In this document: positions 30,601-53,234 of the stretch, one piece after another
How positions within the stretch are numbered: the first letter of the stretch is position 1
Layout of the letters: each line of letters opens with the position of its first letter
IMG/VR virus record: IMGVR_UViG_3300047173_000017
Source of the DNA: a virus
Direction: 5' to 3' (one strand)
DNA: 54,428 nucleotides
Position numbers and translations under genes: made by a program
Notes under the pieces: generated by a model
What the model was told of the DNA's origin: nothing
What the model saw: the letters and a program-made list of their open reading frames with translations, nothing else
Database searches by the model: none

Positions 30601-30958
30601 CAACACGCCGCCGTTCTCGCCGGCGGGCTACACGCCGGTCGCCGCGGACAATCAGACGATCTACCAGTTCGACGCGAACGCATCGCAGCGTCTGCCCTAC
30701 GCCTGGACGTCGAAGGAATTTCAGGGCCGGCCGGTTGCCTACCTGCTCGCGCAGGTCCGCGCCTACGACTACTCTGCCTGCCAGCTGCAGGTCTATGCCG
30801 ACGGCGTGCTGTACTCGACCACCACGGTGACGGGTCCGGAGTTCACGCTTCCGCAGCCGGTCAGCGGGGTCGCGCAACGCTACGCTCACCTGACGCTGTC
30901 GGGCACCAGCAAGGTGTCGCAGGTCATCCTGGCCGAAGGCGCGGATGAGCTGCAATGA
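27695..30958 (+). CDS. Large tail (nozzle/tubular-B-like) protein, 1,087 aa, with inserted lectin-like domain and a C-terminal domain paralogous to the 843-aa protein N-domain
   Basis: GTG start. VSYVYTLSNDLGQESGPSSPS-type blade motif. The insertion FDGGANNGWTLSTN...NTWLTFKCTITPSG looks ConA/LamG-like. Confidence 0.75.
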   Translation: MAINIMEFKGEAPRLTPDQLPDGMSQSAVNARLLSGALEAWQDFVATHSGDTSAPVSIYLLAESYWLEWAASALGAYATEVDVAQCAVAGDTSNRVIFCGTDAPRFTDIGLATGLVDGSGNPITGSSTPGPATTGLPVYSRKLGVPNPGSNDPIVLATTSSETTIEAQLGYYQPTTFVSVDTNAAGSPVSITDTFDGGANNGWTLSTNTGTPFTNFSEAQIIATGGDAGTGNGCLDLQSNNANASAMRQFGVETSAAITFQVDFNVISLPNYDYAFGFHCGRDAADLEGVLFYWDFQSPGYSWWKANYSSSLVLSSGNFGGSIEFPLNTWLTFKCTITPSGSAVADYSFQVFNGATLLASFTLSGYPIVGNNFGFNAYGGGNNGNSGVLHVQYDNVQINASSTGSTENPPVAVSYVYTLSNDLGQESGPSSPSYPPITRSDGTAVTVGLPTTLDWGQFTGGLHVEPTAANPAIGPTTATGGGGGYAGVDPTYFEIGTYTPIALLKINLYRTVTTDNGTSFLFVTSQPFGTAFYVDSLEDAALSNALNTSDWAPPPTNMQGILALPNGIYAGFFGNQLALSAQGVQHSYPVSYRLTFDTAVVAIGNVDTMVVVATKSFPYIAYGTTPDSYSESKIEAPHPCQSKRSLAYLRGVGVAYSTADGLVAIAGPGRANLVTQGLFTDREWKALNPSSHISAVKDDRYFCWYQTSNASGGTTTPTVLQSTDQVVNQTYGGVYTAQLILNGVQSGSTIVVGFAGASLVQSVADGQGTYQAAALDGALGVSADVGIFVLTGAVAGTHTITLTSQPADGPTIAAVAYEVTASTVQDVGTSVQLQSVAANAVFDGAITTTGNNRLVIGFVASEINFTQPLALAPLTLAPNPSSEVYPSVAMAWVAEASAGAVTLPFQNNSLVAVDDFSFVAISLGSGGVTKGGFVLDLREAGAGKMSLAFHATARYDDPQADKLYVVMDYNTPPFSPAGYTPVAADNQTIYQFDANASQRLPYAWTSKEFQGRPVAYLLAQVRAYDYSACQLQVYADGVLYSTTTVTGPEFTLPQPVSGVAQRYAHLTLSGTSKVSQVILAEGADELQ

Positions 30959-33295: not shown

Positions 33296-33751
33296 ATGGC
33301 CGACGCGACCACTGCTGGTCTGACGTCGCCGGCGGGCATCGGCTCGAGCGCGGCGCAGGGTGTCAGCTACGGCACTGGCGGCGCTTTCAGCGGCGATGCG
33401 AACAGCCTGTACCAGCAGGTCACGCAAAGCGAGTGGCAAAACTACATGCAAAATTTCGTGCCGATCGAGAATCAGCTAATCAAGTTCGCGAGCGACACGA
33501 CGCAGCCGGCACAAGCAATGGCGACCGCGCAGACGAACATGAATGCCGCCGAGGCGCAGCAACCGCAGATCCAGCAGAACCGGCTTGACCAGTACGGCAT
33601 CAAGCTCGACCAGGCCGGCAAGCAAGCGGCCGGGATGGATCAGAACCTCAACGCCGCGCTCGGCAGCGTTGACGCGCAGAACCAAGCCAAGGACACGACG
33701 ATCCAGCAGCAGGAGTCGATCCTTGGCGCACCGATGACGGGGCTGACGTAA
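33296..33751 (+). CDS. Internal-virion-type protein candidate (151 aa, Gln-rich)
   Basis: Internal ATG (MADATTAGL...) 1 nt after the upstream stop. Confidence 0.6.
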   Translation: MADATTAGLTSPAGIGSSAAQGVSYGTGGAFSGDANSLYQQVTQSEWQNYMQNFVPIENQLIKFASDTTQPAQAMATAQTNMNAAEAQQPQIQQNRLDQYGIKLDQAGKQAAGMDQNLNAALGSVDAQNQAKDTTIQQQESILGAPMTGLT

Positions 33752-34083
33752 TGCCACTTCCCTACAGCGTTGGCGCAAGGCAGACCGGCGCGGCCGATCC
33801 GTCACTCGACACTGGCGGTGGCCTGGCGAACATGGGCACGTCGGTGCAGAGCGAGGCGAACACCGACCTGCAATTCGCCGCCGCGTCCGAGTCGAACCGC
33901 AACTACGAGAATCAGCAGATCGAGATCAAGAACAAGCAGGGCAACGAGCAGCTGGGCGGCGCGGTCGGCGGCGCTGCGGGCGGCGCTGCGGCCGCCGCCG
34001 AGTGGGGTTCGGCTGCTGGCCCATACGGCGCGGCGGTGGGCGGCATCCTTGGCCTGCTGGCTGGTGGCCTGTTCAACAAGTGA
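33751..34083 (+). CDS. Gly-rich protein with C-terminal hydrophobic segment (110 aa)
   Basis: ORF track. The C-terminal stretch ...GGAVGGAAGGAAAAAEWGSAAGPYGAAVGGILGLLAGGLF is Gly/Ala-rich and ends in a hydrophobic segment. Confidence 0.6.
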   Translation: MPLPYSVGARQTGAADPSLDTGGGLANMGTSVQSEANTDLQFAAASESNRNYENQQIEIKNKQGNEQLGGAVGGAAGGAAAAAEWGSAAGPYGAAVGGILGLLAGGLFNK

Positions 34084-34090
34084 GTGCCTG

Positions 34091-35869
34091 ATGCCTTACG
34101 GGATGATGGGCGGTCTTGGAGGTTCGGGCTATCAATCGCCTGGTGCGTCTGTGCTCAGCGGCATGGAAGCCGGAGCGAATTTCATCTGGCAAGCGCAGGA
34201 CCGGCTTCAGCGCGCGCAGGATATCCAGTACGAACACGATCGCCAGAATCGGCTCGACGCGATGCGGCAGTCAGAGTTCGACATGCAGCAGCAAGCGATG
34301 CAGGACAAGCAGCAGCAAGCGCACGCGGAAATGGCGCTGCAAGCAGTCCATTCGCAGCAGGACGAGCTGAGCAAGAACATGGTTGCCGATACCGCCAACT
34401 GGGGCGGCGATGGCGTCAGCGCGTCGTCGATCGCCGATCCGATCCAGCAACAGGCGTGGGTGAAAAAGTGGGCGCCGCAGGTCGGCGACATCAACCAGCA
34501 GCTGCAGGGGATTCGGCAGGCCGCGTTCGCGCCGTACATGCGAGATCAACAGAAGTGGGCCGCGGAGTACGGGAACAAGACGCTGAACAGCGGCAACCTG
34601 GATCTGTCGCAGCCTGGCGCCGCGCAGGATTTCAACAGGTACGTCGGGCTGACTACGCACCTGGACCCGCACCTATTCTTGCGCGAAGCAGACGGAACCT
34701 CCGAGGTCGGCCGCGCCATTGACGATGTCACCTACGCGATCAAGAACCCGAACGAGCCCGACGCAAAATCCAGGTACGCGAGCGGCTGGCAGACCCTTGC
34801 CGGCCCGCAAGCGAACACCGGCCTGGGACAGACGACGGCGGGCGGCGCGATAAAGACCGGCCAGGCAATCGACCAGGACAAGCCCGTGGTCCCGACGGCC
34901 GACGGGCAGGCCGCGCACCCGGTCGTCACCGTCAACGCGATGGACCCGAACACGGGCGAAGAGCATGTGCACGGCGCGCAGCCGATGCTTCAGGACGGGT
35001 TCCTGCACCCGGACAACCAGGGCCTGGTGGCGGTAACTCCCGACAAGCAGGCCGACACGCTGCAGCGGTTGAAAGCACTTGAGCTGGCGGCGAACGCAAA
35101 CCCGCAGGTTCGCAAGGCGCTGGCTGACGCAGCGCAGACGCAGGACCCGGCGCTGTGGAATTATCAGGCGATGGTCGGGTATCTCGGCGTGCCCAAGCGC
35201 GACGACCAGGATCAGACCGTGTTCAAGGAACTCGCCGATCCGGCCAACCCTGGCAAGAACGTCGTCAAGATGTTCACGTACAACCGGCAGGGCGTGCTGG
35301 TGCGAGAGCCTGTTCCGGTCGGGGCGCCGGCGACGAAGCGCACTGCGCTGCAGGAAGAGCTCGACGACATCAATACCAACGTATCGGCCGGCCTTTACAC
35401 GCCAGAGCAGGGCAAGGCAATGACGGCCGTGGCGATCTCGAAGGGGTGGAAGAACGCCGCCTACGGGCTGAGCGGCGGCGCCGCACCGGCCGGCGGTGCT
35501 GGCGGCAAGGTCAAAGAGGCAAGTGAAGCGGAGATTAAGGCGGCGCAGGCCGCGGCGGTGGAAGAAGCCGAAGTGCAGGCCGGCATCGGCCACCGCAAGG
35601 TCACGTCGACCGACGCCGATGGCAACCAGGTCATTCAGGACCAGCCCTATCACAAGAGCACCGGGATCGCGCTGACCGGCGACGAGCAGGTCGAGCAGGA
35701 CCGGGCGAACCTGGCGGCGAAGAAATCCGTCGTCGAGCAGGCGCGGCCGGCCGGTATCGCGCCGCACGCGGCTGGTGCTGGCGCGAAGCCGGCGCCGAAG
35801 CTCGGCGCGCCGCCAGCCGCACCGGCCGCTGGACAGCCGCCGCCTCCTGCCGGCTACAAGCCGCTGTAA
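34091..35869 (+). CDS. Internal-virion/ejection-type protein candidate (592 aa)
   Basis: Internal ATG (MPYGMMGGLGG...) of ORF 33770..35869. Gln-rich coiled coil near the N-terminus. Confidence 0.7.
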   Translation: MPYGMMGGLGGSGYQSPGASVLSGMEAGANFIWQAQDRLQRAQDIQYEHDRQNRLDAMRQSEFDMQQQAMQDKQQQAHAEMALQAVHSQQDELSKNMVADTANWGGDGVSASSIADPIQQQAWVKKWAPQVGDINQQLQGIRQAAFAPYMRDQQKWAAEYGNKTLNSGNLDLSQPGAAQDFNRYVGLTTHLDPHLFLREADGTSEVGRAIDDVTYAIKNPNEPDAKSRYASGWQTLAGPQANTGLGQTTAGGAIKTGQAIDQDKPVVPTADGQAAHPVVTVNAMDPNTGEEHVHGAQPMLQDGFLHPDNQGLVAVTPDKQADTLQRLKALELAANANPQVRKALADAAQTQDPALWNYQAMVGYLGVPKRDDQDQTVFKELADPANPGKNVVKMFTYNRQGVLVREPVPVGAPATKRTALQEELDDINTNVSAGLYTPEQGKAMTAVAISKGWKNAAYGLSGGAAPAGGAGGKVKEASEAEIKAAQAAAVEEAEVQAGIGHRKVTSTDADGNQVIQDQPYHKSTGIALTGDEQVEQDRANLAAKKSVVEQARPAGIAPHAAGAGAKPAPKLGAPPAAPAAGQPPPPAGYKPL

Positions 35870-35872
35870 GCC

Positions 35873-38800
35873 GTGGCCGACTGGCAGCGCGTCGACCAGG
35901 TCGCGAAGAACGACGCCGGTCAATACATGGCGCTGGTCGGCGGGCAGTGGCAGCCGGCCGAGGGTGGAGCGAAGAACGACGCCGGGCAGTACATGGCGCT
36001 GCTGTCCGGCGGCGGGATCGACCAGTCCGTGCAGGACCCGCGCGACGCGCAGGCGCAGGGCAAGGCGGGCATCCAGCTGCCGCCGGAGCAGCAGGGCCCC
36101 ACCGAGCAGCCGCAGGGCGCGGTGGGCCTGCAGAACACGCAGCCTGGCTACTTCATGGGCGAGGGCAGCAAGGCGCTTGCCCGCGGCCTGCTCGACGTGA
36201 AGCAGATGCCGCAGGCGATCAAGGTGTTTGCCTCGTCCGAAAACGTTAAGATCGCGCGCGACAAACTGGCCGCGTGGAACCAAATCGACGACGGCACCAC
36301 GCCGCCGCCGGCGCAGCCGCAGCCTGGCGACCCGGAGATCCAAGGAACCGAGGGCCGCACGCAGTCCTGGGAATACGCGCAGGCCACGCCGCAGCAGCGC
36401 ATCGACATGCGCGCGAAGGTCCTCAAGTCCATTTCTGATAACCAGGACGACCAGCGCGCGGCGATCAAGGTCTGGCAGGAGTTCGCCGCCCAGAAGCAGA
36501 AGCTCACCGGCCGGGTTCCGAGCCTGACCGACGTCCACGACGCAACCGACTTTCGGGACTACCTGACGTCGAGCTTGGGCGAAGGTGCGCTGCCGCTGGC
36601 CGCGATGGTCACGGCGTCCGCTATCCCACGGGTGGGGTTCGGCCTGGTGTCGGCGATCATGGCCGGGACGTCTGTTGCCGGCGGCACGGGTGCCGCGCTC
36701 GAGTCGGCACAGACGCCGGCGATGGGTGGGCAGCACGTCGAGGGGCGGTGGGTTCCAGGCCAGGCGGCGACCATCCAGCCGAACGACGCGCAGGCCGTGA
36801 TGGATCAGCGCCGGGCCGGCATCGGCCTTGCCGCCGGCGCCGAGACGGCGATGGGCGCCCTAAGCCCGACGCAGGCCGTGGGGCGCGACGCGCTGGGCGC
36901 GGCGGTGCAGGGCATCAAAAGCACCGTCGGGCGCGTGGCCGCGAAGGCGGGCCTGGGCGCTGCCGACATGGGCGTGCAGAACGTGGCGCAGTACGGGATG
37001 GACACGGCGGCGCAGGGCGAAACTCCGACCCTTGGCGGCGCTGCTGACGCGCTGACGACCGGCATCATCACGGGCGCTGCGATCGCCGGAGCGCACGGCG
37101 CGATGCACGCGCGCAAGGAAAACGCCGCCAGGGTCGCGGCGGACCAGGACGCGCAGATCCGCGCCGCGGCGCAGACCGTCGCCGACCAGGGCGCGGCGCC
37201 GGCGGATCAGATGCGCGCCGCGGCGGGGATGCAGCCAGGGGAAATGCCGGGTGGTCCCGGCGAGCCTCCGGCGCCAGCCGCGCCTGGCGCGCCCGAGGTC
37301 GTCGGTTCCGGCGGGGCGCCTACTGACAAAACCGCCGAAAGCCCTTCCGGCAGTTCTGGCAGTACCCCTCCCGCCCATGTTGACCCTGCGGTGGCGCAGC
37401 TGGAACAGGCGCGCGACCTGGCCAAGAACAGTCCGAGCGAGACGGTGCGCGCCGCGGCGCAGAAGATCATCGACGCGGACGAGCAGCGCAAGGCGGCGTC
37501 GACCGAGGCCGAGCGCCTGGCCGGCGAGGTCGGCCACACGATCGACGCGCTGCGGGACGCGCGCGACGCCGGCAACGAACCGCTGGCCACCGAGCTCGAG
37601 ACGGCGCTGGCCAAGCTGCAGAAGCAGGCCGCGAAGGCGCGCGAGGCGGCGGGCGAGGCGCCACCGAAGGGCGGCATCGAGGTCAAGGAAGGGACGGTCG
37701 AGCATATCGAGGTCCCGCCGGTCGACGAGGAAAAGGTCGGCAACGAGCGCGCCGCAGCGGCGGCGGCAGAGGACAAGGACGAGCGCGAGACGTACTACGG
37801 CACCGACCAGCCGAAGGACGCGCTGACCGGGTCGGACGCCGACCGAGCGGCGTCGCGCGGCCGGTCGCCGCTGCTCAAGGGGTTGCGGGACGCCGGCGGC
37901 ATCCGGACAGACCAGCTCAGCGAGATCGGCCTGGACCGCAAGCGGGCCGACGGCAAGCGGCAGTCCTGGTCGATCGGCCAGGGTCAACCCCTGTTCCACA
38001 AGCAGGGCGCGCTGGCCGACGATTCCCTGGCCGAGCACCTTCACCAGCACGGGTATCTGGCCGACGAGTCGGACGTCGACGGCGCGCATGAAATGGTCCG
38101 GCAGGAGTGGGAGAATCCCGGATCGGTCAAGCCGCTGCGCGAGCGCGACCGCCAGGCCGAGGACGCGCTGGCCGCGCGCTACGACCGGGAGCGCGACCAG
38201 GAGCTTGCCGAAGAGGCTCGAGCCATCGGCATCGACCCGACTGGCCGAACGTCCGAGGATTTGCAGAACGCCGTCATCGCGGCGCATCATGCGGACTGGA
38301 CTCACCTGGCGCAGCACGGTCTGACGCCAGACCACGCTGCCGATTGGGCTGAGGTTCACCGGGCCGCGCACCGCGACCTGGCGGCGACCGAAGAGGCAGG
38401 ACGCCAGTACCCCGCGCATGGCGACGACTTCATGCGGGCAATCAGGGAGATCAACGGTGGGCTGGACTCCGAGCGCGAATCTAATCAGGGCGGCGATCAA
38501 CACCAGTCCGGACCAGGCGGCGAGGCTGGCAAACCAGCAGTACGTGGCGAGTCTGCGGAAGCCGCCGGCGCAGATCGCGGCACCGGGCAAGAGCCAGCAG
38601 ATCGGGCCGGCAATGGTCAACAAGGCCGTGATGCCGGCGAACCCGGCGGCAACGCTCAGGCCGGACCCGAGGTTCCTGACGGGGGGGCTGAACGCCGAAC
38701 AGCGACCGCAGCCCAAGGGCGAGGACCTTTAGACGAAGCGGGCATCCGGCGCTTCGCGCGCGCCGCGCAGGCCGCAGCACAGAAGGCCGGCTTCGATCTC

Positions 38801-41800
38801 AAAGAGTTGTTCCGGAAGGGTTACGTCCGGATCGTCGATTCAAGCAACGCGTCACACCCGCTCGCGTCACACCCTGGGGTGTCGGCGCTTTACGTTCCTC
38901 CGATCCGCGGCGCCGACGGCAAGATGGAGCGCCGCGGCTACGTCGAGATTTACGCCGACCGCGCGGACCCGCAGCGCATCCCTGAATTGATCTTGCATGA
39001 GGTCGGCGACCACCTTGGCCTGCTGGGCCTGGGCCGGGACGGCTACGACAAACTGCTCAACGAGATCCTGGACAACCGCAACGCGCCGGACGTTCAACGA
39101 ACCTGGCGCGAGGTCGCGCAGAATTACCCGGATCTACCCGAGGGCGGCCGCGCGTTCTTGCGCGAGGTATCGGCGCACCTGGCCGAGACGGGCGCGGACC
39201 GCGGCACCACCAGGAAGCTGCTCGACCACGCGCAGGCGATGGCCTACAAGACGCTCGGCATCCGGCTCGGCCGCACCGGCGACCTGGTGCGAGGCCTGGC
39301 CGCGGCGATGGCACGCTCGATCCAGAACAGCCGGTTCGACATCGCGAAGGAACGCATGGCCATTCCCGAGAGGGAAGGCGAGAGCATTCGGATCGCGCGC
39401 GAGGCGAGCGCTGCCGGCCGGGCGGCGTGGGCAGCGGCGAACGGCGGCGCGGCGGCGAAGCAGACCGAAGCCAAGCTGCGCGGCCCGCTGTCGGCCGACC
39501 AGGCTCGAGCGCACCCGAGCATCGGACCCGTGATGGCCGCTGCCGATTCGCTCGGCCTGTCGGCGCTGCACGAAGCGACCGACTTCAACGTGCAAGAGGC
39601 GCACCACGGCGACGATGCGGCGACGGTCCATATCGGCACCGACGGCCGCGTGAAGATCACTCTTTGGGGCGCGCATAACGAGCTGGTGGATTCCGGCGAC
39701 CCGCGCGACCTGTCGCAAGCGCAACGCCTGGTCTATCACGAACTAATGCACGTCATGGATGCGGCGAACCGCGGCGGCATCTACTCGGCGCACCCGGATC
39801 TGTGGATTGATCACAACCGCGCCGGCGACATCGTCGGGATCGGCGACGCGGCGCGCGAGCTCATCCAGCTGTACCGCAACAACGACCTGCTGAACAAGAT
39901 GCTGCACTACCCGCTGCACACCGACTACTCCGGCATGGGACCGACCGAGCTGCCGAAGGAATTGTTCGCTCAAGCACAGACCGCGTATCTCGCGAAAACC
40001 GCCAGGGAGATTATCGAACGTGAAGCACCGAACGCAGCAAGGTATCTCAGGATTGCCCTCGAGCAAGCGCGTGGCGCCAAAGCCCCGCTTACAGAATCCG
40101 ACCGCCAGATTGCCAGGACCGCCTTCGCAGCCGCAACCCGACGCGGAACAGATGAGCGATCCGCAACAGCTGCCGATTCTGGCCGACCCGGCGGCGGCGG
40201 GGATGCCGGGGGTCGACCTGGGTTTGACGGAATAGCAGCGTCGCAGCGCACCGAGCGCGAGCGCGATCCGATCCTCGACGTGCGGCCGGCGCCAATCTGG
40301 AAGTCCGCGCTGCACGACGCTGTCGCGTCGATGCCGGACAAGAAAATGCCGGGCTCGTCCTGGCTGGCCGAGATCAAGGGCCTGGTCAACAAGGGCAAGG
40401 TCAAGGCCGAAGAGCTGCGCTGGGTCGGACTGGACGACGCGTTGAAGGCTGCGCCTGGGAAGCTGTCGCGCGACGACGTGGCGAAGTGGATCGCCGACAA
40501 CGGCGTGAGGCTCGACGAGGTTCGGTACGGCGACACTAGAAGAGAGCAGCGCGATGCCCTCAAGGCTGCTCGCAACCGCGTGCTGGATGTTTTGAAGGAA
40601 GCGCGCGGCTTCATGGAATCCGGCGGCGTCGACCCCGACGAAATGGCGTCCGCGATCGACGCATTGCAGAACCATAAGCCGCAGTCCGGCGTCGACGATC
40701 CGCAGCTGACGAAAGCATACGAGCTTCTTCGCGAGCACGCGCCGCCCGGCTACGACTTCAACACGATCAACGACGCGCACGACGCTCACGCGCGGGCAAT
40801 CGAGGATTGGGACGCCGCGAGGATCGCCGACAGCTCGCAATCGGCCACGCGACACGCTAAGTACACGCTACCAGGCGGCGAGAATTACCGCGAGACGGTG
40901 CTGACGCTGCCGTCGAGAAATGGAGAGGCCATCGCGCGGTTAACACAACAACGTCGCGCTGAGTCGGAAAAAATCCGGGAGGCGCTTATTGCGGTTCGTA
41001 GAAGCAACATCACTCCCAACGAATATGCGGAGATCAAGTTGGCCGCTACCGGCCGGATAGACGAGATTGACCGCAATCTGATCGAGCTCGCGAAGGAATC
41101 GGTCCGTCGTGCAGAACCACACTTCGAGCACAACGGTCACTGGCCGGGCGTCGAGAATCCTGTTGCCCACCTTCGCACGACCGACCGCGTCGACGCCGAA
41201 GGCAAGCGCAACCTGCACGTCGAGGAATTTCAATCTGACTGGGGCGAGCAGGGTCGCAGCAAGGGATTCTCTGACAAGAGCAAGGTCGCCGACGCCGAGC
41301 GCCGCCTTGAAGCGTTTGATGCCGAGACAGAATCCTTGAGGGGCGCGATCCTCGATCAAATGAAAGAGCTTGCGAAGAACGGCCAGCGCGATATCCTTAC
41401 AATGTCTGAGGAAGATAGTCAGCGGTGGCATGACCTGGACAGACAGCAAGCGCACATCACTGACGAGCGGTGGGCGCAGCGCGCACCATTGAATGATGAG
41501 TTGAGTCGCGCCAGAAGCGGCCTTCCGCTCGCCCCGTTCGTCGGGAACACTCAGCACTGGGTCGCGCTGCTGATAAAGCGGGCGATCCGGATGGCCGCAG
41601 AAGGTGGCTACGACCGCGTCACCTGGTCGCGCGGCGATCAGATCAACAACGTCCTTTCTATTTCGAGAGTCGTCAGGAAAATCTCCTGGGACGCTGAACC
41701 GAAGCGCAATCTGCGGCGCGTCGTCATGGACCTGACCCAGTACCGCGATCCGATGGAGCTCGTCGTCGACAACAGGAACGGCGAGATTGCACAGGTCAGC

Positions 41801-44800
41801 GACGATTCTCAAAGTGCCTGGGTCGGCAAAAATCTCAGCGAGGTCGTCGGCAAGGAAATGGCCGACAAGATCATGAGCGACAAGGTCGAATACGGCTCGC
41901 TCGAGGGCGACGGTCTGAAGGTCGGCGGCGAGGGCAACCGCAAGTTCTACGACCAGGTCGTGCCGAACGTCGCGAACGACGTTCTAAAAAAATTCGGCGG
42001 CGGCCGGGTCCGCGATGTCGACTATGGCAACGGGCCGGCGTCGGTCGAGCGGTACAGGGTGTTCTTCGACGATGACGCAGTGAACAACGGCGAGCGCGGC
42101 GGCTGGTATATCGAGGACGAAAACGGACCGCGGGAAAGTAGATTCGTTACCCGCGAAGAGGCGCAGGCACAAGCGAACGAGTACAACGCGGACGAGGACC
42201 AGTCGACGGCGATCGGTCGGCAGCAAGGCTTCGACATCACGCCGGAAATGCGCGCGCAGGCCAGCGAGGCAATGCCGATGTTCTCGAAGCGCGAAGCCCC
42301 TCGAGCGCGCGATCCGATTCTCGACACGCGGCCCGGCACCGACGAGCGAGATCAGAATTTCCGCCGCTGGTCGAACGACGCGCCGATGGTTCGTTCTGCT
42401 GACGCAGACAACTACCCGTTCAAGTCTGGGCAGAAGTTCGTCGCCGAGGCGTTCCACGGAACCAAGCGGCCCGACCGCGTCGGGTCCCGGTTTCGCAAGT
42501 CCCGCGCAACATCCGGGCCGATGTCGTTCTTCACCAGCGACCCGCAGCTCGCGTCCGGCTACGCGGCGAGCAAGAACGACACGTCGTTGCAGCGCGAGGA
42601 CCAGGGTTACGAGACATGGTTTCGCTACAAGCCGAAGGGCGCGCGCACCGCTGTCAACATCGACCGGGCCTGGTATCACCTGGACCGCGAGACGCAGGAC
42701 AAGATCGCGCGGATCGCGCCGACGCTGCATGAGGACGACGACGGCAACCTCGTCTCGACGCCTGGCAAAACGTCGGGCAACGGCGGCTACGACCAGGCGC
42801 TTGCCGAGACGCAACGCGGCTGGGACAAGCGCGGCAACCCGCTGAAGGCGCTGGTCGAGGCGTGGCTAAATTCCGGTTCGATGTTCGACCGCGAGGAAGA
42901 TTTCGGCAAGCTGCTCGAGGCTGCGGGGATGCCGAAGGGCAGCGTGGAAATGCACGACCCGCACGCTCAGTACCCCGCGGTCTACAAGACGTTCGTTCAC
43001 ATGGACCGGCCGCTGGTCACGACCGACATTCCGCCCGAGGTCCGCGATGCGCTGAACACTGCGGCGAAGCGCGACCGATCCAGTCCAGTGCAGGGTGCGA
43101 CCGGGTGGGACAAGGACTCGCAGACCCTGCGCGACTGGGTCCGAGACTTCAACAGCGGCGACGACGCGGCGCGCTACCTCTGGACGTTGATACCGGAAAA
43201 GGTGACGAAGGTCCTGCGCTCGCTCGGCTACGATGGCATCGTCGACCGCAGCGGCAAGGGCGGCGGACCGGAGCATCCGGTCTATATCCCGTTCGACGAG
43301 AATCAGGTCAAGTCCGCGCTCGGCAACAAGGGTACGTTCGACCGCGACTCGTCTGACATCGCAGCGTCGCAGCGCACGCCGAAGGACGACATCGGGCTGA
43401 CCTACCCCGGCGCGAAGATGCCTGGCGGCGGTGGCACGCCACCGCGCCGGCCTGGCGCGCCAGGTCCAGCTGCGACGCCGCCGGGTGGCACGCCACCGCT
43501 CGCGCAGCGCAACCCGTTCTACCGGCGCATCTGGGATTCGCCTTTCTTGCAGAAGGCGCGCGACCTTGCCGGCAATATCTTCCGCGACATCCAATCGAAA
43601 ACTTCGCCGATGACCGCCACGTCGACGAAGGAATTTCAGGCGATGGCCAAGGACTACGCCAACGCGATGCGCCAGGGCCGGCAGAAGTTCGCCGAGTGGT
43701 TCGACATCCTCAACCGGAATTACAACGCCGACCAGCTCAGGAGAATGTGGGAAGCCGGCGACGAAGAAAACGACATGCGCCGCGAGCAGCGGCTGAACGG
43801 CACGCCACTCGATCCGAGCAAGGGCCTGGCGTCGTTGCCGAAGGACCAGCGCGACGTGATGGATTTCATGTCGGCCTACGGCACGAAGCTGCTGGCCGAG
43901 GCGAAAGCACTCGGCATGTACGAAGGCGAGGGCGTCGACTACTGGGTCCCGCGCACCGCGGCGCGCATCGGCGCTGACGGCGACTACGAACCTCTGCTGC
44001 CCGGAGCTCGAGGCGAGGGTGGCGGATCGCCGCGCACGAAGTCCAAGAACCTGACCGGCCGCAATTGGGACACGACGGCCGAGGCGGAAGCCGCGCTGCA
44101 GGGACGCGAGGGCACGGGGGCGAAGTTCATTCGGGACATCCGCACGATGCCGCTGGCCATGCGCCGCCTCGAGGAAGCAATCGCCGGCCGGCGCCTGGTC
44201 GATAGGGTGCTCGAGGAATCGCAGAAGATGGCGCTTGACCCTGCCGCGTTCGTGCCGGCGAGCGACCATCCGGCGTTCAAGGTCTACCAGGCGGACATCA
44301 ACGACCCGACCGCGCCGTGGAAGGTCACGACGATGCGGATTCCCAAGGAAGCGAAGGGCCCGCTCGACGCCGTGCTGTCGAAGGCGCCAGGGGATGCCTA
44401 CAAGGGGCTGCTGGCCCTGAAGAATTGGGGCGTGGGCAACATCATGTTCAGCCCATTCATCCACTTGGGCGTCGAGCTGGGTCGTGCTGCGCCGGTCATG
44501 CGCGGCAAGATGCTGACGCTCGGTTTCTGGAAGGACGGTGCCGCGATGCTGCGGAACCCGGACCTGCTGCGCCAGGCGATCGGCGAGGGGTACGTGAAGA
44601 TCGGCCGGCAGAACCTGTCCGAAGATATGTCCTCGATGGAGCGCGAACCGGAGCTGCATCCAGGCCGAGGTCTGACGGCGCAAGTCGCCGGCCTGGCCGC
44701 TCGGCCGTTCGGCAAGAACGCGCGCCAGGCCGCGATGCGCGGGGTCGACCGGATCGGCGACTTCGTGCACGGCACGTTGCTGTGGGACCGGATCGCCCAG

Positions 44801-46189
44801 CTGCAGGCCGGCATTTACCTGACGACCCGCAAGGCGGCGATCGCGAAGGGGATGCAGCCTCGAGTCGCCGGGATCGTCGCGGCGCATATCGCCAACCGCT
44901 ACGCGGGCGCGCTGCCGCCGGAGTCGATCAGCAGCGCCGGCCGCAAGGTGGCGAACCTGCTGCTCTTCTCGAGGTCGTTCACTTTGGGCAACCTGGGCGT
45001 CATGAAGGACGCGCTGACCGGCTTGCCGCAGGACGTGCGCGCGCAGATCGAGACAGAGTTCGGCCAGGCGCAGCTGGTGAAAGCGACGTCCTACTCCCGT
45101 CGCAAGGCGTTCGCCGGGGTGATCGCGGACGTGGGGATGATGGCCGCGCTCAACGCGGTGGCGCAGTCCGGAATCAGCGCGCTGAACAAGCAGCAACAAG
45201 ATCCGGAGTGGGACAAGCAGCTGCTGTCGAAGCTCAAGTTCTTGGGCGCCGAGGGCGTGGGTGGCGTCGTCGGCATGGGAGCGCTCGGCGTGCCTGGCAT
45301 GGTCGCCGGCGCGCTCGGCGCTGGATGGCTGGCCGACCAAAAAGCTGCCGTCGCGCAGTCGCACGACCTGGTGGACTCGATGGTCCGGGGCATGAAGTCC
45401 GCCGCGATGGACCCGGTCCACGCGGTGCTGCATCCGTTCGACACGCTCGAGTCGATGTCGCCGACCTACCGCAACGAGCCTGGCAAGGGCGACCGCATCC
45501 TGGTCGGCCACGAGCCGGACGGTACGGCAATCTACGTGCGGTTGCCGTTCGGCAAGGTGGCCGAGGAAATCAAGGGATGGGCCACGCGCCCGGCGTGGCG
45601 GGGGCCGGATGGAACGCCGTCGATGCTCGAGCAGAAGAGCTCGACGCTGGTGCACCCGCTGCAGTACGCCTACACGAACGACACGGGGTTCGGCCGCAAG
45701 CTCTACAAGGACAACGACGACGTACTGGTCAAGGGCGGGAAGATTGCCGGCGAATTGATGAAGGAACAGGTGCCGGCCGATTCGATCGCTTCCGCCTATC
45801 GGATGCTACAAGGCAAGGGGCAACCGATGGACCCCGAAAAATTCCTGGGGCCGCTCCTGGGGTTGACGTTCTCGAAGGGGGCGCCTGGCGGGGAAGCGTC
45901 CGGCGAGCTCTTCCGCGAGGAAAGCCGGCACAAGGCCGACGTCGCCGACGCGGCGCCGGACATCAAGCAGGCGATCAAGGACGGCGACCAGGCCACCGCC
46001 AAGCGGCTGATGGACGCGGCAGGCATGACGGCCGAGGAACGCCGGTCGATGATTAAGCACACGCTGCACCCGGAGACATACGTCAGCGCGAGGGCGCTGC
46101 GGCAGTTCCAGCAAACGGCTACACCCGAAGAAAAGGCCAGGATGGCCAGCGCGCGCGCGGCGCGCCAGCCCGCGCAACCGGAGCAATAA
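35873..46189 (+). CDS. Giant 3,438-aa multidomain (polyvalent-type) virion protein candidate
   Basis: Uninterrupted ORF from a GTG start. HELMH at 39737-39751. ART-like FHGT...FFTSD...YIPFDENQVKSALGN module. HVEEFQSDWGEQGR module. Repeated RDPILD-x-RP and IAASQRT linkers. Hydrophobic Gly-rich C-terminal third. Confidence 0.9.
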   Translation: MADWQRVDQVAKNDAGQYMALVGGQWQPAEGGAKNDAGQYMALLSGGGIDQSVQDPRDAQAQGKAGIQLPPEQQGPTEQPQGAVGLQNTQPGYFMGEGSKALARGLLDVKQMPQAIKVFASSENVKIARDKLAAWNQIDDGTTPPPAQPQPGDPEIQGTEGRTQSWEYAQATPQQRIDMRAKVLKSISDNQDDQRAAIKVWQEFAAQKQKLTGRVPSLTDVHDATDFRDYLTSSLGEGALPLAAMVTASAIPRVGFGLVSAIMAGTSVAGGTGAALESAQTPAMGGQHVEGRWVPGQAATIQPNDAQAVMDQRRAGIGLAAGAETAMGALSPTQAVGRDALGAAVQGIKSTVGRVAAKAGLGAADMGVQNVAQYGMDTAAQGETPTLGGAADALTTGIITGAAIAGAHGAMHARKENAARVAADQDAQIRAAAQTVADQGAAPADQMRAAAGMQPGEMPGGPGEPPAPAAPGAPEVVGSGGAPTDKTAESPSGSSGSTPPAHVDPAVAQLEQARDLAKNSPSETVRAAAQKIIDADEQRKAASTEAERLAGEVGHTIDALRDARDAGNEPLATELETALAKLQKQAAKAREAAGEAPPKGGIEVKEGTVEHIEVPPVDEEKVGNERAAAAAAEDKDERETYYGTDQPKDALTGSDADRAASRGRSPLLKGLRDAGGIRTDQLSEIGLDRKRADGKRQSWSIGQGQPLFHKQGALADDSLAEHLHQHGYLADESDVDGAHEMVRQEWENPGSVKPLRERDRQAEDALAARYDRERDQELAEEARAIGIDPTGRTSEDLQNAVIAAHHADWTHLAQHGLTPDHAADWAEVHRAAHRDLAATEEAGRQYPAHGDDFMRAIREINGGLDSERESNQGGDQHQSGPGGEAGKPAVRGESAEAAGADRGTGQEPADRAGNGQQGRDAGEPGGNAQAGPEVPDGGAERRTATAAQGRGPLDEAGIRRFARAAQAAAQKAGFDLKELFRKGYVRIVDSSNASHPLASHPGVSALYVPPIRGADGKMERRGYVEIYADRADPQRIPELILHEVGDHLGLLGLGRDGYDKLLNEILDNRNAPDVQRTWREVAQNYPDLPEGGRAFLREVSAHLAETGADRGTTRKLLDHAQAMAYKTLGIRLGRTGDLVRGLAAAMARSIQNSRFDIAKERMAIPEREGESIRIAREASAAGRAAWAAANGGAAAKQTEAKLRGPLSADQARAHPSIGPVMAAADSLGLSALHEATDFNVQEAHHGDDAATVHIGTDGRVKITLWGAHNELVDSGDPRDLSQAQRLVYHELMHVMDAANRGGIYSAHPDLWIDHNRAGDIVGIGDAARELIQLYRNNDLLNKMLHYPLHTDYSGMGPTELPKELFAQAQTAYLAKTAREIIEREAPNAARYLRIALEQARGAKAPLTESDRQIARTAFAAATRRGTDERSATAADSGRPGGGGDAGGRPGFDGIAASQRTERERDPILDVRPAPIWKSALHDAVASMPDKKMPGSSWLAEIKGLVNKGKVKAEELRWVGLDDALKAAPGKLSRDDVAKWIADNGVRLDEVRYGDTRREQRDALKAARNRVLDVLKEARGFMESGGVDPDEMASAIDALQNHKPQSGVDDPQLTKAYELLREHAPPGYDFNTINDAHDAHARAIEDWDAARIADSSQSATRHAKYTLPGGENYRETVLTLPSRNGEAIARLTQQRRAESEKIREALIAVRRSNITPNEYAEIKLAATGRIDEIDRNLIELAKESVRRAEPHFEHNGHWPGVENPVAHLRTTDRVDAEGKRNLHVEEFQSDWGEQGRSKGFSDKSKVADAERRLEAFDAETESLRGAILDQMKELAKNGQRDILTMSEEDSQRWHDLDRQQAHITDERWAQRAPLNDELSRARSGLPLAPFVGNTQHWVALLIKRAIRMAAEGGYDRVTWSRGDQINNVLSISRVVRKISWDAEPKRNLRRVVMDLTQYRDPMELVVDNRNGEIAQVSDDSQSAWVGKNLSEVVGKEMADKIMSDKVEYGSLEGDGLKVGGEGNRKFYDQVVPNVANDVLKKFGGGRVRDVDYGNGPASVERYRVFFDDDAVNNGERGGWYIEDENGPRESRFVTREEAQAQANEYNADEDQSTAIGRQQGFDITPEMRAQASEAMPMFSKREAPRARDPILDTRPGTDERDQNFRRWSNDAPMVRSADADNYPFKSGQKFVAEAFHGTKRPDRVGSRFRKSRATSGPMSFFTSDPQLASGYAASKNDTSLQREDQGYETWFRYKPKGARTAVNIDRAWYHLDRETQDKIARIAPTLHEDDDGNLVSTPGKTSGNGGYDQALAETQRGWDKRGNPLKALVEAWLNSGSMFDREEDFGKLLEAAGMPKGSVEMHDPHAQYPAVYKTFVHMDRPLVTTDIPPEVRDALNTAAKRDRSSPVQGATGWDKDSQTLRDWVRDFNSGDDAARYLWTLIPEKVTKVLRSLGYDGIVDRSGKGGGPEHPVYIPFDENQVKSALGNKGTFDRDSSDIAASQRTPKDDIGLTYPGAKMPGGGGTPPRRPGAPGPAATPPGGTPPLAQRNPFYRRIWDSPFLQKARDLAGNIFRDIQSKTSPMTATSTKEFQAMAKDYANAMRQGRQKFAEWFDILNRNYNADQLRRMWEAGDEENDMRREQRLNGTPLDPSKGLASLPKDQRDVMDFMSAYGTKLLAEAKALGMYEGEGVDYWVPRTAARIGADGDYEPLLPGARGEGGGSPRTKSKNLTGRNWDTTAEAEAALQGREGTGAKFIRDIRTMPLAMRRLEEAIAGRRLVDRVLEESQKMALDPAAFVPASDHPAFKVYQADINDPTAPWKVTTMRIPKEAKGPLDAVLSKAPGDAYKGLLALKNWGVGNIMFSPFIHLGVELGRAAPVMRGKMLTLGFWKDGAAMLRNPDLLRQAIGEGYVKIGRQNLSEDMSSMEREPELHPGRGLTAQVAGLAARPFGKNARQAAMRGVDRIGDFVHGTLLWDRIAQLQAGIYLTTRKAAIAKGMQPRVAGIVAAHIANRYAGALPPESISSAGRKVANLLLFSRSFTLGNLGVMKDALTGLPQDVRAQIETEFGQAQLVKATSYSRRKAFAGVIADVGMMAALNAVAQSGISALNKQQQDPEWDKQLLSKLKFLGAEGVGGVVGMGALGVPGMVAGALGAGWLADQKAAVAQSHDLVDSMVRGMKSAAMDPVHAVLHPFDTLESMSPTYRNEPGKGDRILVGHEPDGTAIYVRLPFGKVAEEIKGWATRPAWRGPDGTPSMLEQKSSTLVHPLQYAYTNDTGFGRKLYKDNDDVLVKGGKIAGELMKEQVPADSIASAYRMLQGKGQPMDPEKFLGPLLGLTFSKGAPGGEASGELFREESRHKADVADAAPDIKQAIKDGDQATAKRLMDAAGMTAEERRSMIKHTLHPETYVSARALRQFQQTATPEEKARMASARAARQPAQPEQ

Positions 46190-46190
46190 G

Positions 46191-46538
46191 ATGACCGACG
46201 ACAAGTGGCAGGCGCTCAAGCAAGCCGAGATCGGCACCGGCATTGGCCTGGTTGCTGCCGTATTCAGGCTAGTGATCTTCGGCCAGGCAGGCGGGTTTCT
46301 GGCGTGGCTGTCGATCGCCAGTGCGGCTATCCTGGTCGGCATCGTCTGCAGCCTGGCGCTGGCGCATACCACGATCAACGGGGTGACGCTGTCGACCGGG
46401 GTGCAGTGGGCGACGAGCCTGGTCGTTACCTTCATCGCACGGGACCTGCTGACCGGCCTGCGCGGTGTCGGCGACCAGTTTGCCAGCGACCCGCTCGCGA
46501 TCGCGATGCGGGTCTGGAACGCGATTCGAGGACGTTGA
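46191..46538 (+). CDS. Holin candidate (115 aa, three hydrophobic helices)
   Basis: Starts 1 nt after the giant gene. Helices IGLVAAVFRLVIF, FLAWLSIASAAILVGIVCSLALA and WATSLVVTFIA. First gene of the lysis cassette. Confidence 0.7.
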   Translation: MTDDKWQALKQAEIGTGIGLVAAVFRLVIFGQAGGFLAWLSIASAAILVGIVCSLALAHTTINGVTLSTGVQWATSLVVTFIARDLLTGLRGVGDQFASDPLAIAMRVWNAIRGR

Positions 46539-46539
46539 A

Positions 46540-46863
46540 ATGAACCCCGTAGAAATCTTCCAGTTTTTCGTCATTGCCGTGTGCTTGATTGCCGCGATCA
46601 TTTCCTTTGCCGCGTACCGCAGCTCGAGCGTTGGCGGTCCGGAGTCGATCAACGCCGGCCGGCTGGTCAAGGCAGTGGTCTACCTGGTGATTGCCGGCTG
46701 GGTCATCGACCTGATCTCGCGGGCCGACCCGCAACAGCACGCGCTGCTCATCCCGATCTTTCTGCTGGCGCTGGTGGATCTCGGCCAGGGGCTGTCGCGG
46801 ATCGCGGACTCGGTCGGTGTCGGCCCGTGGCTGACTGCCAGGCACGCGCGACACGATAGCTAG
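46540..46863 (+). CDS. Second holin/antiholin-like membrane protein (107 aa, three hydrophobic helices)
   Basis: Internal ATG 1 nt after the upstream stop. Helices FFVIAVCLIAAIISFAAY, AVVYLVIAGWVIDLI and LLIPIFLLALVDL. Confidence 0.65.
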   Translation: MNPVEIFQFFVIAVCLIAAIISFAAYRSSSVGGPESINAGRLVKAVVYLVIAGWVIDLISRADPQQHALLIPIFLLALVDLGQGLSRIADSVGVGPWLTARHARHDS

Positions 46864-46872
46864 ACGACCGGA

Positions 46873-47151
46873 TTGGCGGTACGATCCTTCCTGCAACGGG
46901 AGGGATCGGTGGAACCGAAGGTCAGCCAGGTCGTCGACCCGACGATCGACATCAATCTCGACGAGCCCATCAGCCCGCTCGCCGCCCCTGTCAAGGTCAC
47001 GCCGCCGCCGCCGCGCAAGCCCGCGCCGCCGCCGCCCCGATCGGTGCGCGGCGCGATCTACGCCTTCCTGCTGATCGTCCTGGCTGTCGCGATGATCCTG
47101 AACAACAGGGGTCTGCTCATCCCGGTGCTCACGCGAGCGCATCTGCTTTGA
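46873..47151 (+). CDS. Pro-rich, C-terminally anchored membrane protein (up to 92 aa); start uncertain
   Basis: TTG at 46873, or GTG at 46909 after GGGAGGGA. Contains PPPPRKPAPPPPR followed by the TM segment AIYAFLLIVLAVAMIL. Confidence 0.5.
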   Translation: MAVRSFLQREGSVEPKVSQVVDPTIDINLDEPISPLAAPVKVTPPPPRKPAPPPPRSVRGAIYAFLLIVLAVAMILNNRGLLIPVLTRAHLL

Positions 47152-47654
47152 ATCCGCTCTCGATCATTGAGCTGGTGGTCATGGTCGGGATCGTCGCCGG
47201 CGCGGCGTGGCTGGGTGGCGACGTGGAAAAGGCGCACCTGAACGCGGAGTTCGACAAGGAACGTGCGGCGATCCGTGCCGAGGTCGACGCGCAGCGCGGC
47301 CGTGCGGACCGCGCCGAGGCGCTTGCAAACGGCAAAGACCAGGAGGTTCTAAATGCTCAGAGCACTGCTGCGAAACAGCGCGCGACTGACGCTGCTGCTA
47401 TGGCTGATTCTCTTGCCCGCTTGCACCAGCGTCTGTCCGATCTCACCGCCAGCGTCGGGACTGGTGCTGCCGCCGTTCCCGTATCAAAGGGCGAATCCTG
47501 CGCCGCCGCAGTCACCCGACTCGCCGACGGCGTCGGCAAGCTGGCGGGTGCTGGTGGACTCCTTGCAGCAACCTACGACGCCTGCTCCGACCAGCGCCGC
47601 GCCTGCGAGCGGTGGGCCGACATCGTCGAAGAGCAAGTGAAGGCGTCGCGTTAG
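47148..47654 (+). CDS. Rz: i-spanin (Rz-like)
   Basis: TTG start overlapping the upstream stop. N-terminal TM IIELVVMVGIVAGAAWL, then a charged coiled coil. Contains an embedded lipoprotein ORF. Confidence 0.75.
   Translation: MNPLSIIELVVMVGIVAGAAWLGGDVEKAHLNAEFDKERAAIRAEVDAQRGRADRAEALANGKDQEVLNAQSTAAKQRATDAAAMADSLARLHQRLSDLTASVGTGAAAVPVSKGESCAAAVTRLADGVGKLAGAGGLLAATYDACSDQRRACERWADIVEEQVKASR
47353..47640 (+). CDS. Rz1: o-spanin (Rz1-like lipoprotein) embedded in the +1 frame of Rz
   Basis: Signal peptide plus lipobox LLLWLILLPAC, with a Pro-rich mature part. Lies entirely inside 47148..47654. Confidence 0.75.
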   Translation: MLRALLRNSARLTLLLWLILLPACTSVCPISPPASGLVLPPFPYQRANPAPPQSPDSPTASASWRVLVDSLQQPTTPAPTSAAPASGGPTSSKSK

Positions 47655-52455: not shown

Positions 52456-52782
52456 ATGCCGGCCTATCCCAAATCGCCGCACTACGAAAGCCGGCCGCTG
52501 CGCCAGCTGATCGCGACCCTCGAGTGCGTGCGCTGCGGGATCGAGGGGTACACGCAGTGCGCGCACATGGGTGGTGTGGCGCAAGGTAAGGGGCTGGGCT
52601 ACAAAGTCAGCGACTCGCGTTGTGCCGCGCTGTGCGGGCCGCACCCGAACGCCGAGGGGGAGATCGTCGTCGGGTGCCACGCCGAGGTCGGGGAGGGGCA
52701 CGGCGACCACGGGCTCGAGTGGATCGCCCGCACCTTCATCCTGCTGGTCGAGCGCGGGTTGCTGGTGGTCAAGCGGCGCTAG
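52456..52782 (+). CDS. YbcO/DUF1364-like zinc nuclease-type protein (108 aa), opposite strand to its neighbours
   Basis: LECVRCGIEGYTQCAHMGGV...GKGLGYKVSDSRCAALCGPH...GCH parallels the Cys/His pattern of lambdoid YbcO. GC3-rich codons. The long minus-strand ORF here is Arg/Gly shadow. Confidence 0.65.
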   Translation: MPAYPKSPHYESRPLRQLIATLECVRCGIEGYTQCAHMGGVAQGKGLGYKVSDSRCAALCGPHPNAEGEIVVGCHAEVGEGHGDHGLEWIARTFILLVERGLLVVKRR

Positions 52783-53234
52783 CCGACCCAGCGCCATTTC
52801 CCACCGACCAGGTCGTCGCCCACCGGCAGCACCATCCGGTCCGGCCGGCTGTGCCACCAGCGCGCCGGCCCACCGCTGTCCTGCTTGTCGAGCGTGAAGC
52901 CGGCCGCACGCAAGCTGGCGCCGCCTTCCTCCGGCAGCGTGTAGGTGTAGACCGGCCCGTGGCCAAGCGCCATCGCCGCGCGCCTGGCCGCGCCGTAGAG
53001 CATTGAGCACGCATTGCGCGTGCCGTCGGTGCAGAGGCGGGTGATCTCGACGGCGCGGCCGTCGTCCAGGTGCGGGGCGACCGGCCGGCCGACGATTGCC
53101 ACGCCGACCAGGCGCCCGTCAAGCTCGACGCCGACGCTGAATTTATGCCCGGCCGGCACGCGGTTGTGGCGGTGGTGCTGCCGGACAAAATCGCGGGCCT
53201 GCGCCAGCGTGACGGGTGCTAGCTTCAGGCTCAA
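52779..53234 (-). CDS. GNAT-fold acyltransferase-like protein (151 aa)
   Basis: TTG start in a TTGA overlap. ARDFVRQHHRHNRVPAGHKFSVGVELDGRLVGVAIVGRPVAPHLDDGRAVEITRLCTDGTRNACSMLYGAARRAA is a recurrent phage GNAT-like pattern. Confidence 0.7.
   Translation of the reverse strand: MSLKLAPVTLAQARDFVRQHHRHNRVPAGHKFSVGVELDGRLVGVAIVGRPVAPHLDDGRAVEITRLCTDGTRNACSMLYGAARRAAMALGHGPVYTYTLPEEGGASLRAAGFTLDKQDSGGPARWWHSRPDRMVLPVGDDLVGGKWRWVG

Follow-up and report, generated by a model that had tools for sequence, protein, structure and literature searches.

A giant polyvalent-type phage protein with a constant C-terminal core and exchangeable modules

The viral record IMGVR_UViG_3300047173_000017 (54,428 nt; the whole stretch is called the window here) devotes nearly a fifth of its length to one gene, which raises the question of what kind of protein this gene encodes and what the protein does at infection. 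The open reading frame (ORF) on the plus strand runs uninterrupted for 3,438 codons plus the stop (10,317 nt) and fills 18.96% of the window. An earlier annotation, made from the letters without database searches (the sequence-only reading), had given the figure as 19% and had proposed a polyvalent-type giant protein. Both statements hold. The ART-PolyVal family is recognized above its threshold, disparate domains occur in the relatives, and the C-terminal fold matches that of other polyvalent giants. We put the probability at roughly 0.7 that this is a phage-type polyvalent protein, in which a constant helical core of ~880 amino acids (aa) stands behind exchangeable effector modules, and that it is packaged, ejected, and active on the host.

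The ORF is taken to be a real gene because of the contrast between its third and second codon positions in its frame (GC contents of 0.83 and 0.48, respectively) and because it has hundreds of homologues. Long antisense ORFs opposite the gene are read as by-products of its high GC content. The GTG start yields the N terminus M-A-D-W-Q-R-V, which fits the DW-type motifs at the N termini of the family, and the identical start was called for the near-identical protein P0041 (P- and L-numbers are labels of relatives' proteins and contigs). All motifs listed in the sequence-only reading, including both hydrophobic strings, were located exactly at the positions that it gave, and HVEEFQSDWGEQGR lies at aa 1782-1795. 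A single polypeptide was found to combine an ART-PolyVal module, two zincin-like modules, a module named here EExQSDW, and the core. The features that carry the argument are as follows.

35873-46189, plus strand: giant polyvalent protein gene, 3,438 aa, GTG start, stop (TAG/TAA) included
38735-39442, plus strand: HExxxH...E zincin-like module (aa 955-1190), with H1042, E1043, and H1047 (HEVGDH, nt 38996-39013) and E1098
39440-40231, plus strand: HExxH...E lethal-factor-like zincin module (aa 1190-1453), with HELMH at 39737-39751 (aa 1289-1293), D1296, and E1363 in ELFAQA
40232-40288, plus strand: junction 1, IAASQRT-ERE-RDPILDVRP (aa 1454-1472), with repeats beyond those of shuffled sequences
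40289-42295, plus strand: EExQSDW module (aa 1473-2141), ending in ITPEMR...MPMFSKRE
42275-42334, plus strand: junction 2, PMFSKRE-APRA-RDPILDTRP (aa 2135-2154), with the conserved end of the EExQSDW module
42359-43348, plus strand: ART-PolyVal cassette (aa 2163-2492), PF18760, E = 8.4e-11
43349-43378, plus strand: junction 3, SSDIAASQRT (aa 2493-2502), a tail of the ART-PolyVal type that is kept in a relative without the ART module
43550-46186, plus strand: conserved C-terminal core (aa 2560-3438), ~880 aa, mostly helical, apparently related to LPD38-type regions, presumed virion or ejection anchor

Little of this chain is covered by existing collections. About 85% of it lies outside any Pfam polyvalent-protein model, and an NCBIfam search returned nothing useful. 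Megablast and tblastn searches of a phage collection gave no match for the N-terminal half of the gene and only two weak ones for the C-terminal half, both to part of the EExQSDW module.

The core defines the family. An exhaustive HMMER search found 590 cluster representatives related to it at E <= 1e-3, 436 of them at E <= 1e-30. Among the best 150 of these 590, the core is C-terminal in proteins of 841 to 4,395 aa; the core is constant and the extensions in front of it vary in length. None of 50,697 phage records matched the core in sequence, and neither Pfam nor PHROGs has a model for it. Since 590 representatives stand against zero matches in those records, the family points to a large podophage or prophage group, mostly of Proteobacteria, that isolates have left unsampled. 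The genome-encoded relatives are mostly from Proteobacteria (Bradyrhizobium, Azospirillum, Xanthobacteraceae, Gallionellaceae, and Nevskia), with one in Terracidiphilus, and some of them may be prophages.

The AlphaFold2 (AF2) model of the core is mostly helical, with a predicted local distance difference test score (pLDDT) of 81 and a predicted template modeling score (pTM) of 0.79. Compared with BFVD by Foldseek, it gave 29 matches with E values from 2.8e-11 to 1e-3, at a probability of 1.00 over the full model length; TM-scores among the best matches were 0.35-0.47. The matched structures are C-terminal chunks of giants annotated "Large polyvalent protein associated domain," among them those of Ralstonia phage Alix, Escherichia phage PTXU04, and Cellulophaga phage phi19:3. 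These models suggest that the core is related to LPD38-type C-terminal regions and has the same fold as the C-terminal parts of the LPD-annotated giants, with sequence signals that are weak and not significant. A Pfam search for LPD38 (PF18857) gave no match in the window protein; relatives matched it below the cutoff (E = 0.0063 and 0.0013), and hhalign aligned the core to the LPD38 region of BcepIL02 gp70 over 35 aa, with E = 0.007 and a probability of 5%. The sequence-only reading had described a hydrophobic, Gly-rich C-terminal third, and this description was overstated: the composition is ordinary (Ala, 13%; Gly, 10%), hydrophobic segments are few, and what occupies this part is the conserved helical core.

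In the extension, PF18760 scores 43.2 bits on the segment and 35.9 bits on the whole protein, above the Pfam cutoff of 31.2, so that the ART-like module of the sequence-only reading is now a threshold-exceeding assignment. The module retains the HG[T] and [F/Y]F[S/T] motifs and the C-terminal tail of the family (QIKSA-GN-G-FD) as AFHGT, SFFTS, and NQVKSALGNKGTFD, respectively. It is a cassette, because a phage whose genome is otherwise ~97-99% identical lacks exactly this module. That phage is represented by L006, the metagenomic contig Ga0494735_0000119 of 54,042 bp, whose DNA is 93-99% identical to the window where the two align. The protein it encodes, P0041, is 96-100% identical to the window protein in 50-aa windows outside two regions. 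At one of them (L006 position 16461), a clean in-frame gap of 330 codons removes aa 2163-2492, corresponding to window nt ~42358-43347. The other lies within the EExQSDW module, the only place where P0041 diverges, with 20-56% identity at aa 1651-1750. Recombination between the two IAASQRT copies was considered as the source of the ART indel and rejected, since the breakpoints lie elsewhere and show a microhomology of <=2 nt.

Three segments of the window (34288-35478, 40913-41134, and 52779-53230) gave no blastn alignment to L006. Most of the 596-aa gene directly upstream of the giant gene falls within the first, and the second lies inside the EExQSDW module; both have the look of hot spots of local replacement, one adjoining the giant gene and one within it. 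The module content of relatives, which the sequence-only reading had proposed to compare, is varied. The cargo of shorter core-family members (alignment A3) and of close relatives includes ddrB-ParB, SLT, GGDEF, PBECR5, GNAT, and DUF7178, and MuF_C and InPase are found in relatives as well. The window phage and L006 amount to a natural experiment, differing by a clean ART cassette and by a replaced segment in another module.

The two zincin-like modules are recognized by their metal-site signatures. In the HExxxH module, which 27 core-family members carry, H1042, E1043, H1047, and E1098 alone stay invariant in an alignment of 16 sequences whose identity to the module of the window is 18-39%. 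The last of these ligands is the Glu of an EExxAE-like helix ~50 aa downstream (consensus, EEVLAE). The module has no sequence match to any PDB chain; we take its pattern to resemble that of M49 peptidases such as DPP III. The sequence-only reading had overlooked this module and its HEVGDH motif.

The second zincin-like module had been noted there as an HExxH module, and the present data support it as lethal-factor-like. H1289, E1290, H1293, D1296, and E1363 are invariant (alignment A4; three close homologues are known), and its profile matches anthrax lethal factor (1pwu) at E = 1.4e-4 through an ExFAxA...EAP motif, over a span of only ~40 residues. It shares with anthrax lethal factor, with ATLF-like zincins (M34), and with polyvalent MPTase domains the HExxH motif, the Glu in an E-x-F-A-x-A helix, and the (E/N)AP motif. 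It differs from them in the shortness of that match and in Pfam scores: the window protein matches PhageMetallopep at E = 0.23 and does not reach the ATLF and MPTase-PolyVal models, and in relatives ATLF (E = 0.017-0.023) and SprT (E = 0.047) stay below threshold. Homologues of both zincin-like modules surfaced only in a local search of the core-family proteins; a k-mer-seeded search with aa 960-1453 returned no match.

The EExQSDW module has 33 homologues with many invariant polar residues and matches no Pfam family. Its AF2 model (pLDDT, 83.5; pTM, 0.75), like that of the core, shows many long helices. In other proteins the module co-occurs with ART-PolyVal, MuF_C, InPase, and DUF6321. It is probably enzymatic. 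The invariance of these polar residues, and of the metal ligands of both zincins, in diverse relatives argues for maintained activity, and the EExQSDW and HExxxH modules are candidate new enzyme families of early infection. The whole protein found a single weak match among PHROGs, to an "endolysin" profile of 2,564 positions (E = 0.0019); it falls on the EExQSDW module and was not taken as evidence for a lysin. A PD-(D/E)xK-like site, suggested by D...E-x-Q on adjacent strands, found no fold support and was left as a guess. Stand-alone EExQSDW proteins (P0016, P0021, P0032, P0033, and P0038) often end in repeated GGxV, such as KDGGSVNLAEGGIV, and not in FS[R/K]; these repeats are a second type of module tail.

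The modules meet at short motifs. IAASQRT starts at aa 1454 and again at aa 2496 (nt 40232 and 43358), RDPILD starts at aa 1464 and 2146 (nt 40262 and 42308), and PMFSKRE starts at aa 2135. Shuffled versions of the protein contain 0.06 repeated 7-mers and 0.75 repeated 6-mers, so the two copies of IAASQRT, the two of RDPILDxRP, and a duplication at the N terminus exceed chance; other repeated 6-mers (KDALTG, GADRGT, and DALKAA) are possibly compositional. The recurring linkers of the sequence-only reading are therefore real, as is the 17-nt identical DNA stretch that it noted at the IAASQRT copies, but the linkers are not confined to this one chain. IAASQRT represents, in degenerate form, the end of the tail typical of ART-PolyVal (GxFD...DI[R/A][F/A]S[R/Q]R), and it aligns with NPDIRFQRR and NPDIRYASQR. 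The EExQSDW module closes with a conserved ITPxMR...GxP-h-F-S, and PMFSKRE is that ending. Upstream of the core, VRFSRK, PLFSRT, or LAFSKG stands in many relatives. Each junction string is the version that this lineage has of a module-end motif common to the whole family, Phi-x-[F/Y/A]-S-[R/K/Q].

The motif is enriched in the family. In 140 N-terminal extensions, FS[RK] occurred 76 times as opposed to 29.5 +/- 6.2 expected, a 2.6-fold excess. Permuted motif controls gave ratios of 0.8-1.4 and the related pattern [LI]S[RK] a ratio of 1.7. The pattern [FYA]S[RKQ]R was not enriched (ratio, 1.03); the enriched pattern is [FY]S[RK]. A similar string, GLTFSKGAPGG (aa 3330-3340, nt 45860-45892), lies ~100 aa before the C terminus of the core and is invariant at most positions in 43 sequences. 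It resembles the junction motif FS[R/K] and may be a further site of processing or docking.

In a polyprotein model, which refines the hypothesis of the sequence-only reading, an embedded zincin would cut at the Phi-x-[F/Y/A]-S-[R/K/Q] junctions (IAASQRT and PMFSKRE), at maturation or after ejection, and free the effector modules from the core. The family-wide excess of FS[RK] at module ends fits this model, and so does placement: those EExQSDW ends of the FS[R/K] type that were inspected always precede another module or the core, while FA-x-GG endings are often near the protein end. The HExxxH module lies within 62 aa of the core in 13 of its 27 carriers, usually with a motif (VRFSRK, LAFSKG, or PLFSKS) in the gap. 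An HExxH or HExxxH motif is found in 60 of 77 long N-terminal extensions, and motif and zincin modules co-occur with an odds ratio of 4.5 (p = 9e-4), an association confounded by protein length. However, the other 17 long extensions are free of zincin motifs, no junction motif follows the HExxxH module in the window protein, and single-module proteins also retain the Pro-Leu-Phe part near their C terminus, so that the motif may be structural. Precedents point both ways: the passages of Iyer et al. (2017, PMC5512222) that we draw upon here and below propose processing in general and describe P1 DdrB as processed, yet N4 vRNAP, ArdC, and TraC1 bear MPTase domains and travel unprocessed. Cleavage at the junctions is plausible but tentative, and the complete model seems to us rather unlikely. 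If processing occurs, the HExxxH module would be a better candidate protease than HELMH, because in relatives it is positionally coupled to the motif and the core. Alternatively, the junction motifs are no more than conserved structure where mobile modules end, or scars of recombination, the chain stays uncut, and the zincins act on host proteins, to which we give slightly less than an even chance. The alignment of IAASQRT with the canonical ART-PolyVal tail NPDIRFQRR fits such ends, as does that of PMFSKRE with ITPxMR...GxPhF, which holds also where proteins stop soon afterwards. The motif persists in the relative without the ART module, and unprocessed giant virion proteins such as N4 vRNAP are a precedent (PMC5512222). 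Structural ends leave unexplained why Ser-Arg/Lys follows an aromatic residue specifically at internal junctions and why the HExxxH module so often stands right before motif and core. The 17-nt identity of the IAASQRT copies did not mediate the observed indel, so a recombination scar is not demonstrated.

The surroundings of the gene bear on its packaging.

27695-30958, plus strand: upstream gene for a 1,087-aa internal virion protein, phrog_511 (E = 5e-87), homologous to BcepIL02 gp63
33751-34083, plus strand: upstream gene for a 110-aa protein, weakly P22-gp7-like, phrog_594, with a Gly-zipper
47148-47654, plus strand: downstream Rz-like spanin, phrog_312 (E = 2e-11), and nested in it, in the +1 frame, an Rz1-like lipoprotein ORF (lipobox LLPAC)

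The giant gene is encoded among late or virion structural genes. The sequence-only reading had seen four internal-virion-type genes upstream; the 1,087-aa gene does match an internal virion PHROG, but the others are "unknown" or "virion structural," one of them being the weakly P22-gp7-like gene. The product of the latter matches Pfam P22_gp7 at E = 0.002 (18.4 bits versus a cutoff of 28), has a sub-threshold match to a Gly-zipper family, and is Gly/Ala-rich at its C terminus. Downstream, window 46191-47654 encodes three small membrane proteins (115, 107, and 80 aa) followed by the Rz-like spanin with its Rz1-like ORF. Neither Pfam nor PHROGs recognized an endolysin there; of the lysis cassette that had been proposed, the spanin stands and no other gene was recognized. 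The 4,667-aa BcepIL02 gp70 sits in the same genomic slot as the giant gene. Its counterpart in JC1, gp69, was found by mass spectrometry in CsCl-purified virions with 51 unique peptides (PMC9144972).

Several observations weigh against a packaged multienzyme protein. Packaging and ejection are inferred, indirectly, from synteny, fold similarity, and the proteomics of analogues such as JC1 gp69. BLASTP, hmmsearch, and hhalign comparisons with BcepIL02 gp70 yielded only the 35-aa LPD38-like stretch, which is not significant. The anchor role of the core is presumed from position and conservation, and Foldseek found no significant PDB match for its model, T7 and P22 ejection proteins included. For the EExQSDW module, neither Foldseek with the AF2 model against the PDB nor the profile against PDB sequences gave a match (nothing significant in the former case), so no activity can be assigned to it. 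The ART module is interrupted by two large insertions (about 150 and 50 aa), and the Glu in PEHPVYIPF aligns ambiguously to the catalytic acidic residue of the last strand. One might then see the protein as a structural tail or ejection-conduit component in the role of P22 gp16 or T7 gp16, with the "enzyme" modules as decayed passengers. The giant gene is the third after the weakly gp7-like gene, the protein has hydrophobic and glycine-zipper segments, some relatives carry SLT like T7 gp16, and two BFVD matches are annotated "Tail protein" and "Structural protein." Decay is hard to reconcile with zincin ligands and EExQSDW polar residues that stay invariant in diverse relatives, and none of the solved structures of gp16, gp15, or the P22 ejection proteins matched in fold; we consider this explanation improbable. 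Two further identities, a virion RNA polymerase of the N4 type and an antirestriction methylase-helicase of the DarB type, have little in their favor: the size fits, and in the case of DarB the protein in the corresponding slot of BcepIL02 is annotated in this way. The Pfam search brought up no domain of an RNA polymerase, a methylase, or a helicase, and the SLT, Eco57I methylase, SNF2/helicase, and LPD3 of BcepIL02 gp70 are absent from the window protein. Structures of N4 vRNAP are in the PDB, and the whole protein found nothing at E <= 1 among PDB sequences. The RNA polymerase signature that the sequence-only reading had named as grounds for abandoning its proposal thus did not emerge in Pfam or PDB sequence searches, and we give these two identities almost no weight.

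For a packaged and ejected polyvalent protein, the following course of events may be envisaged. The protein would be built into the podophage particle together with the neighboring internal-virion or ejection proteins, with the C-terminal core as the constant contact to the virion or the ejection machinery and a repeat of 2 x 22 aa at the N terminus as a second possible assembly or targeting signal. At infection it would leave through the tail along with the DNA. In the host, the ART-PolyVal module would ADP-ribosylate its targets, the EExQSDW module would act as a further enzyme, and the two zincin-like modules would turn either on the polyprotein, cutting it where modules end, or on proteins of the host. 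Host-phage conflict would drive the gain, loss, and replacement of modules as cassettes. What the analysis shows is the modular anatomy, the constant core behind extensions of varying length, the presence or absence of the ART cassette, the conserved junction motif, and the metal-site signatures; the enzymatic activity of every module, like any proteolytic processing, is inferred.

The protein belongs to a known class, and its branch is without a sequenced phage isolate. With the phage-type polyvalent proteins (Iyer et al. 2017, PMC5512222) it shares disparate domains in one chain beside virion genes, ART-PolyVal and zincin-like peptidases, and a mosaic content; its relatives carry ddrB-ParB, MuF_C, InPase, and PBECR5, as does that class. 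Outside its coverage lie the HExxxH and EExQSDW modules and the ~880-aa core, and the passages of that paper used here mention no "linker," junction motif, or N-terminal tandem repeats. The "DarB-like" giants of Lessievirus (Bcep22 gp75, BcepIL02 gp70, and JC1 gp69) have in common with it the giant size, an LPD38-type C-terminal region (by fold, and weakly by sequence), and the slot after a phrog_511-type internal virion protein and small virion proteins and before the lysis genes. Unlike them, the window protein lacks SLT, the methylase-helicase dyad (N6-adenine methylase and SF2 helicase), and LPD3, has no significant sequence similarity to them, and has in place of those domains ART-PolyVal, the two zincin-like modules, and the EExQSDW module. 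The ejection proteins of P22 (gp7, gp20, and gp16) and T7 (gp14, gp15, and gp16) are likewise encoded in a gene run at the end of the virion module and leave the capsid with the DNA; the weakly gp7-like neighbor and the hydrophobic or glycine-zipper segments are further likenesses. The core matches none of the solved ejection proteins in sequence or fold, and the giant protein is far larger and has enzymatic cargo. T4 Alt is a separate protein of ~75 kDa with a capsid-targeting sequence and not part of a giant chain. Its likeness to the ART module is a functional analogy, as a packaged ART delivered with the DNA to reprogram the host (PMC5512222), and the ART module of the window protein is of a different ART family.

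New in this protein are a core family absent from isolates, the HExxxH...E and EExQSDW modules, the cassette polymorphism, the family-wide junction motif, and the habit of N-terminal tandem repeats. Polyvalent virion proteins presumably meet the defenses of the host before any other phage protein does. To our knowledge, almost none of them has been dissected. The junction motif and the two candidate proteases with identified metal ligands offer handles for tests, the constant core could anchor the delivery of engineered cargo, and the N-terminal tandem motif may be a packaging signal.

The remaining features of the protein lie mostly in its N-terminal part.

35876-36007, plus strand: tandem repeat of 2 x 22 aa (aa 2-45), ADWQRVDQVAKNDAGQYMALVG / GQWQPAEGGAKNDAGQYMALLS, a candidate assembly or targeting motif
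36560-37162, plus strand: Ala/Gly-rich region (aa 230-430), recognized by composition and resembling N-terminal regions of P0071 and P0043
38165-38737, plus strand: conserved module of unassigned role (aa ~765-955), with homologous stretches in P0044, P0045, P0042, P0066, P0169, and P0059
43379-43549, plus strand: Pro/Gly-rich spacer (aa 2503-2559; Pro, 24%; Gly, 17%)
45239-45334, plus strand: glycine-zipper hydrophobic insertion in the core (aa 3123-3154; GVGG...GAGWL, ~30 aa), a low-pLDDT loop

The 22-aa duplication reported in the sequence-only reading is present as a tandem repeat, beyond shuffle expectation, with AKNDAGQYMAL at aa 11-21 and 33-43 (nt 35903-35935 and 35969-36001). We scored a tandem repeat wherever an 8-mer recurred with >=6/8 identical residues within the first ~90 aa. 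Such repeats were found in 49 of 142 family proteins, as opposed to 5 of 142 internal windows and 3 of 142 shuffled sequences. Tandem duplication of a short motif at the N terminus is thus a hallmark of the whole family. The motifs vary by lineage (DDWxPV, DPWG, NPFDxFD, AGYSxxEI, and FDDIP in relatives P0042-P0187), and some of them, to our eye, recall the colicin Tol-box or SSB-tail-like acidic/aromatic motifs. A bolder version of the polyprotein model would join both ends of the chain. In it, a true tailed-phage polyprotein has its Phi-x-F-S-R/K junctions cleaved by the HExxxH zincin, which frees the cassettes from the ejection core after entry, and the acidic/aromatic tandem motifs (DDWxPV, DPWG, and FDDIP) dock the leading end to a virion partner or, colicin-like, to a periplasmic partner of the host. 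We regard this combination as doubtful.

No Pfam family matches the module at aa ~765-955. The glycine-zipper insertion occurs in the window protein and in P0041 and is absent from the aligned homologues P0001-P0007, which suggests that it is specific to this lineage. A Kyte-Doolittle scan of the Ala/Gly-rich region found a single candidate membrane segment, at aa 245-276 (nt 36605-36700).

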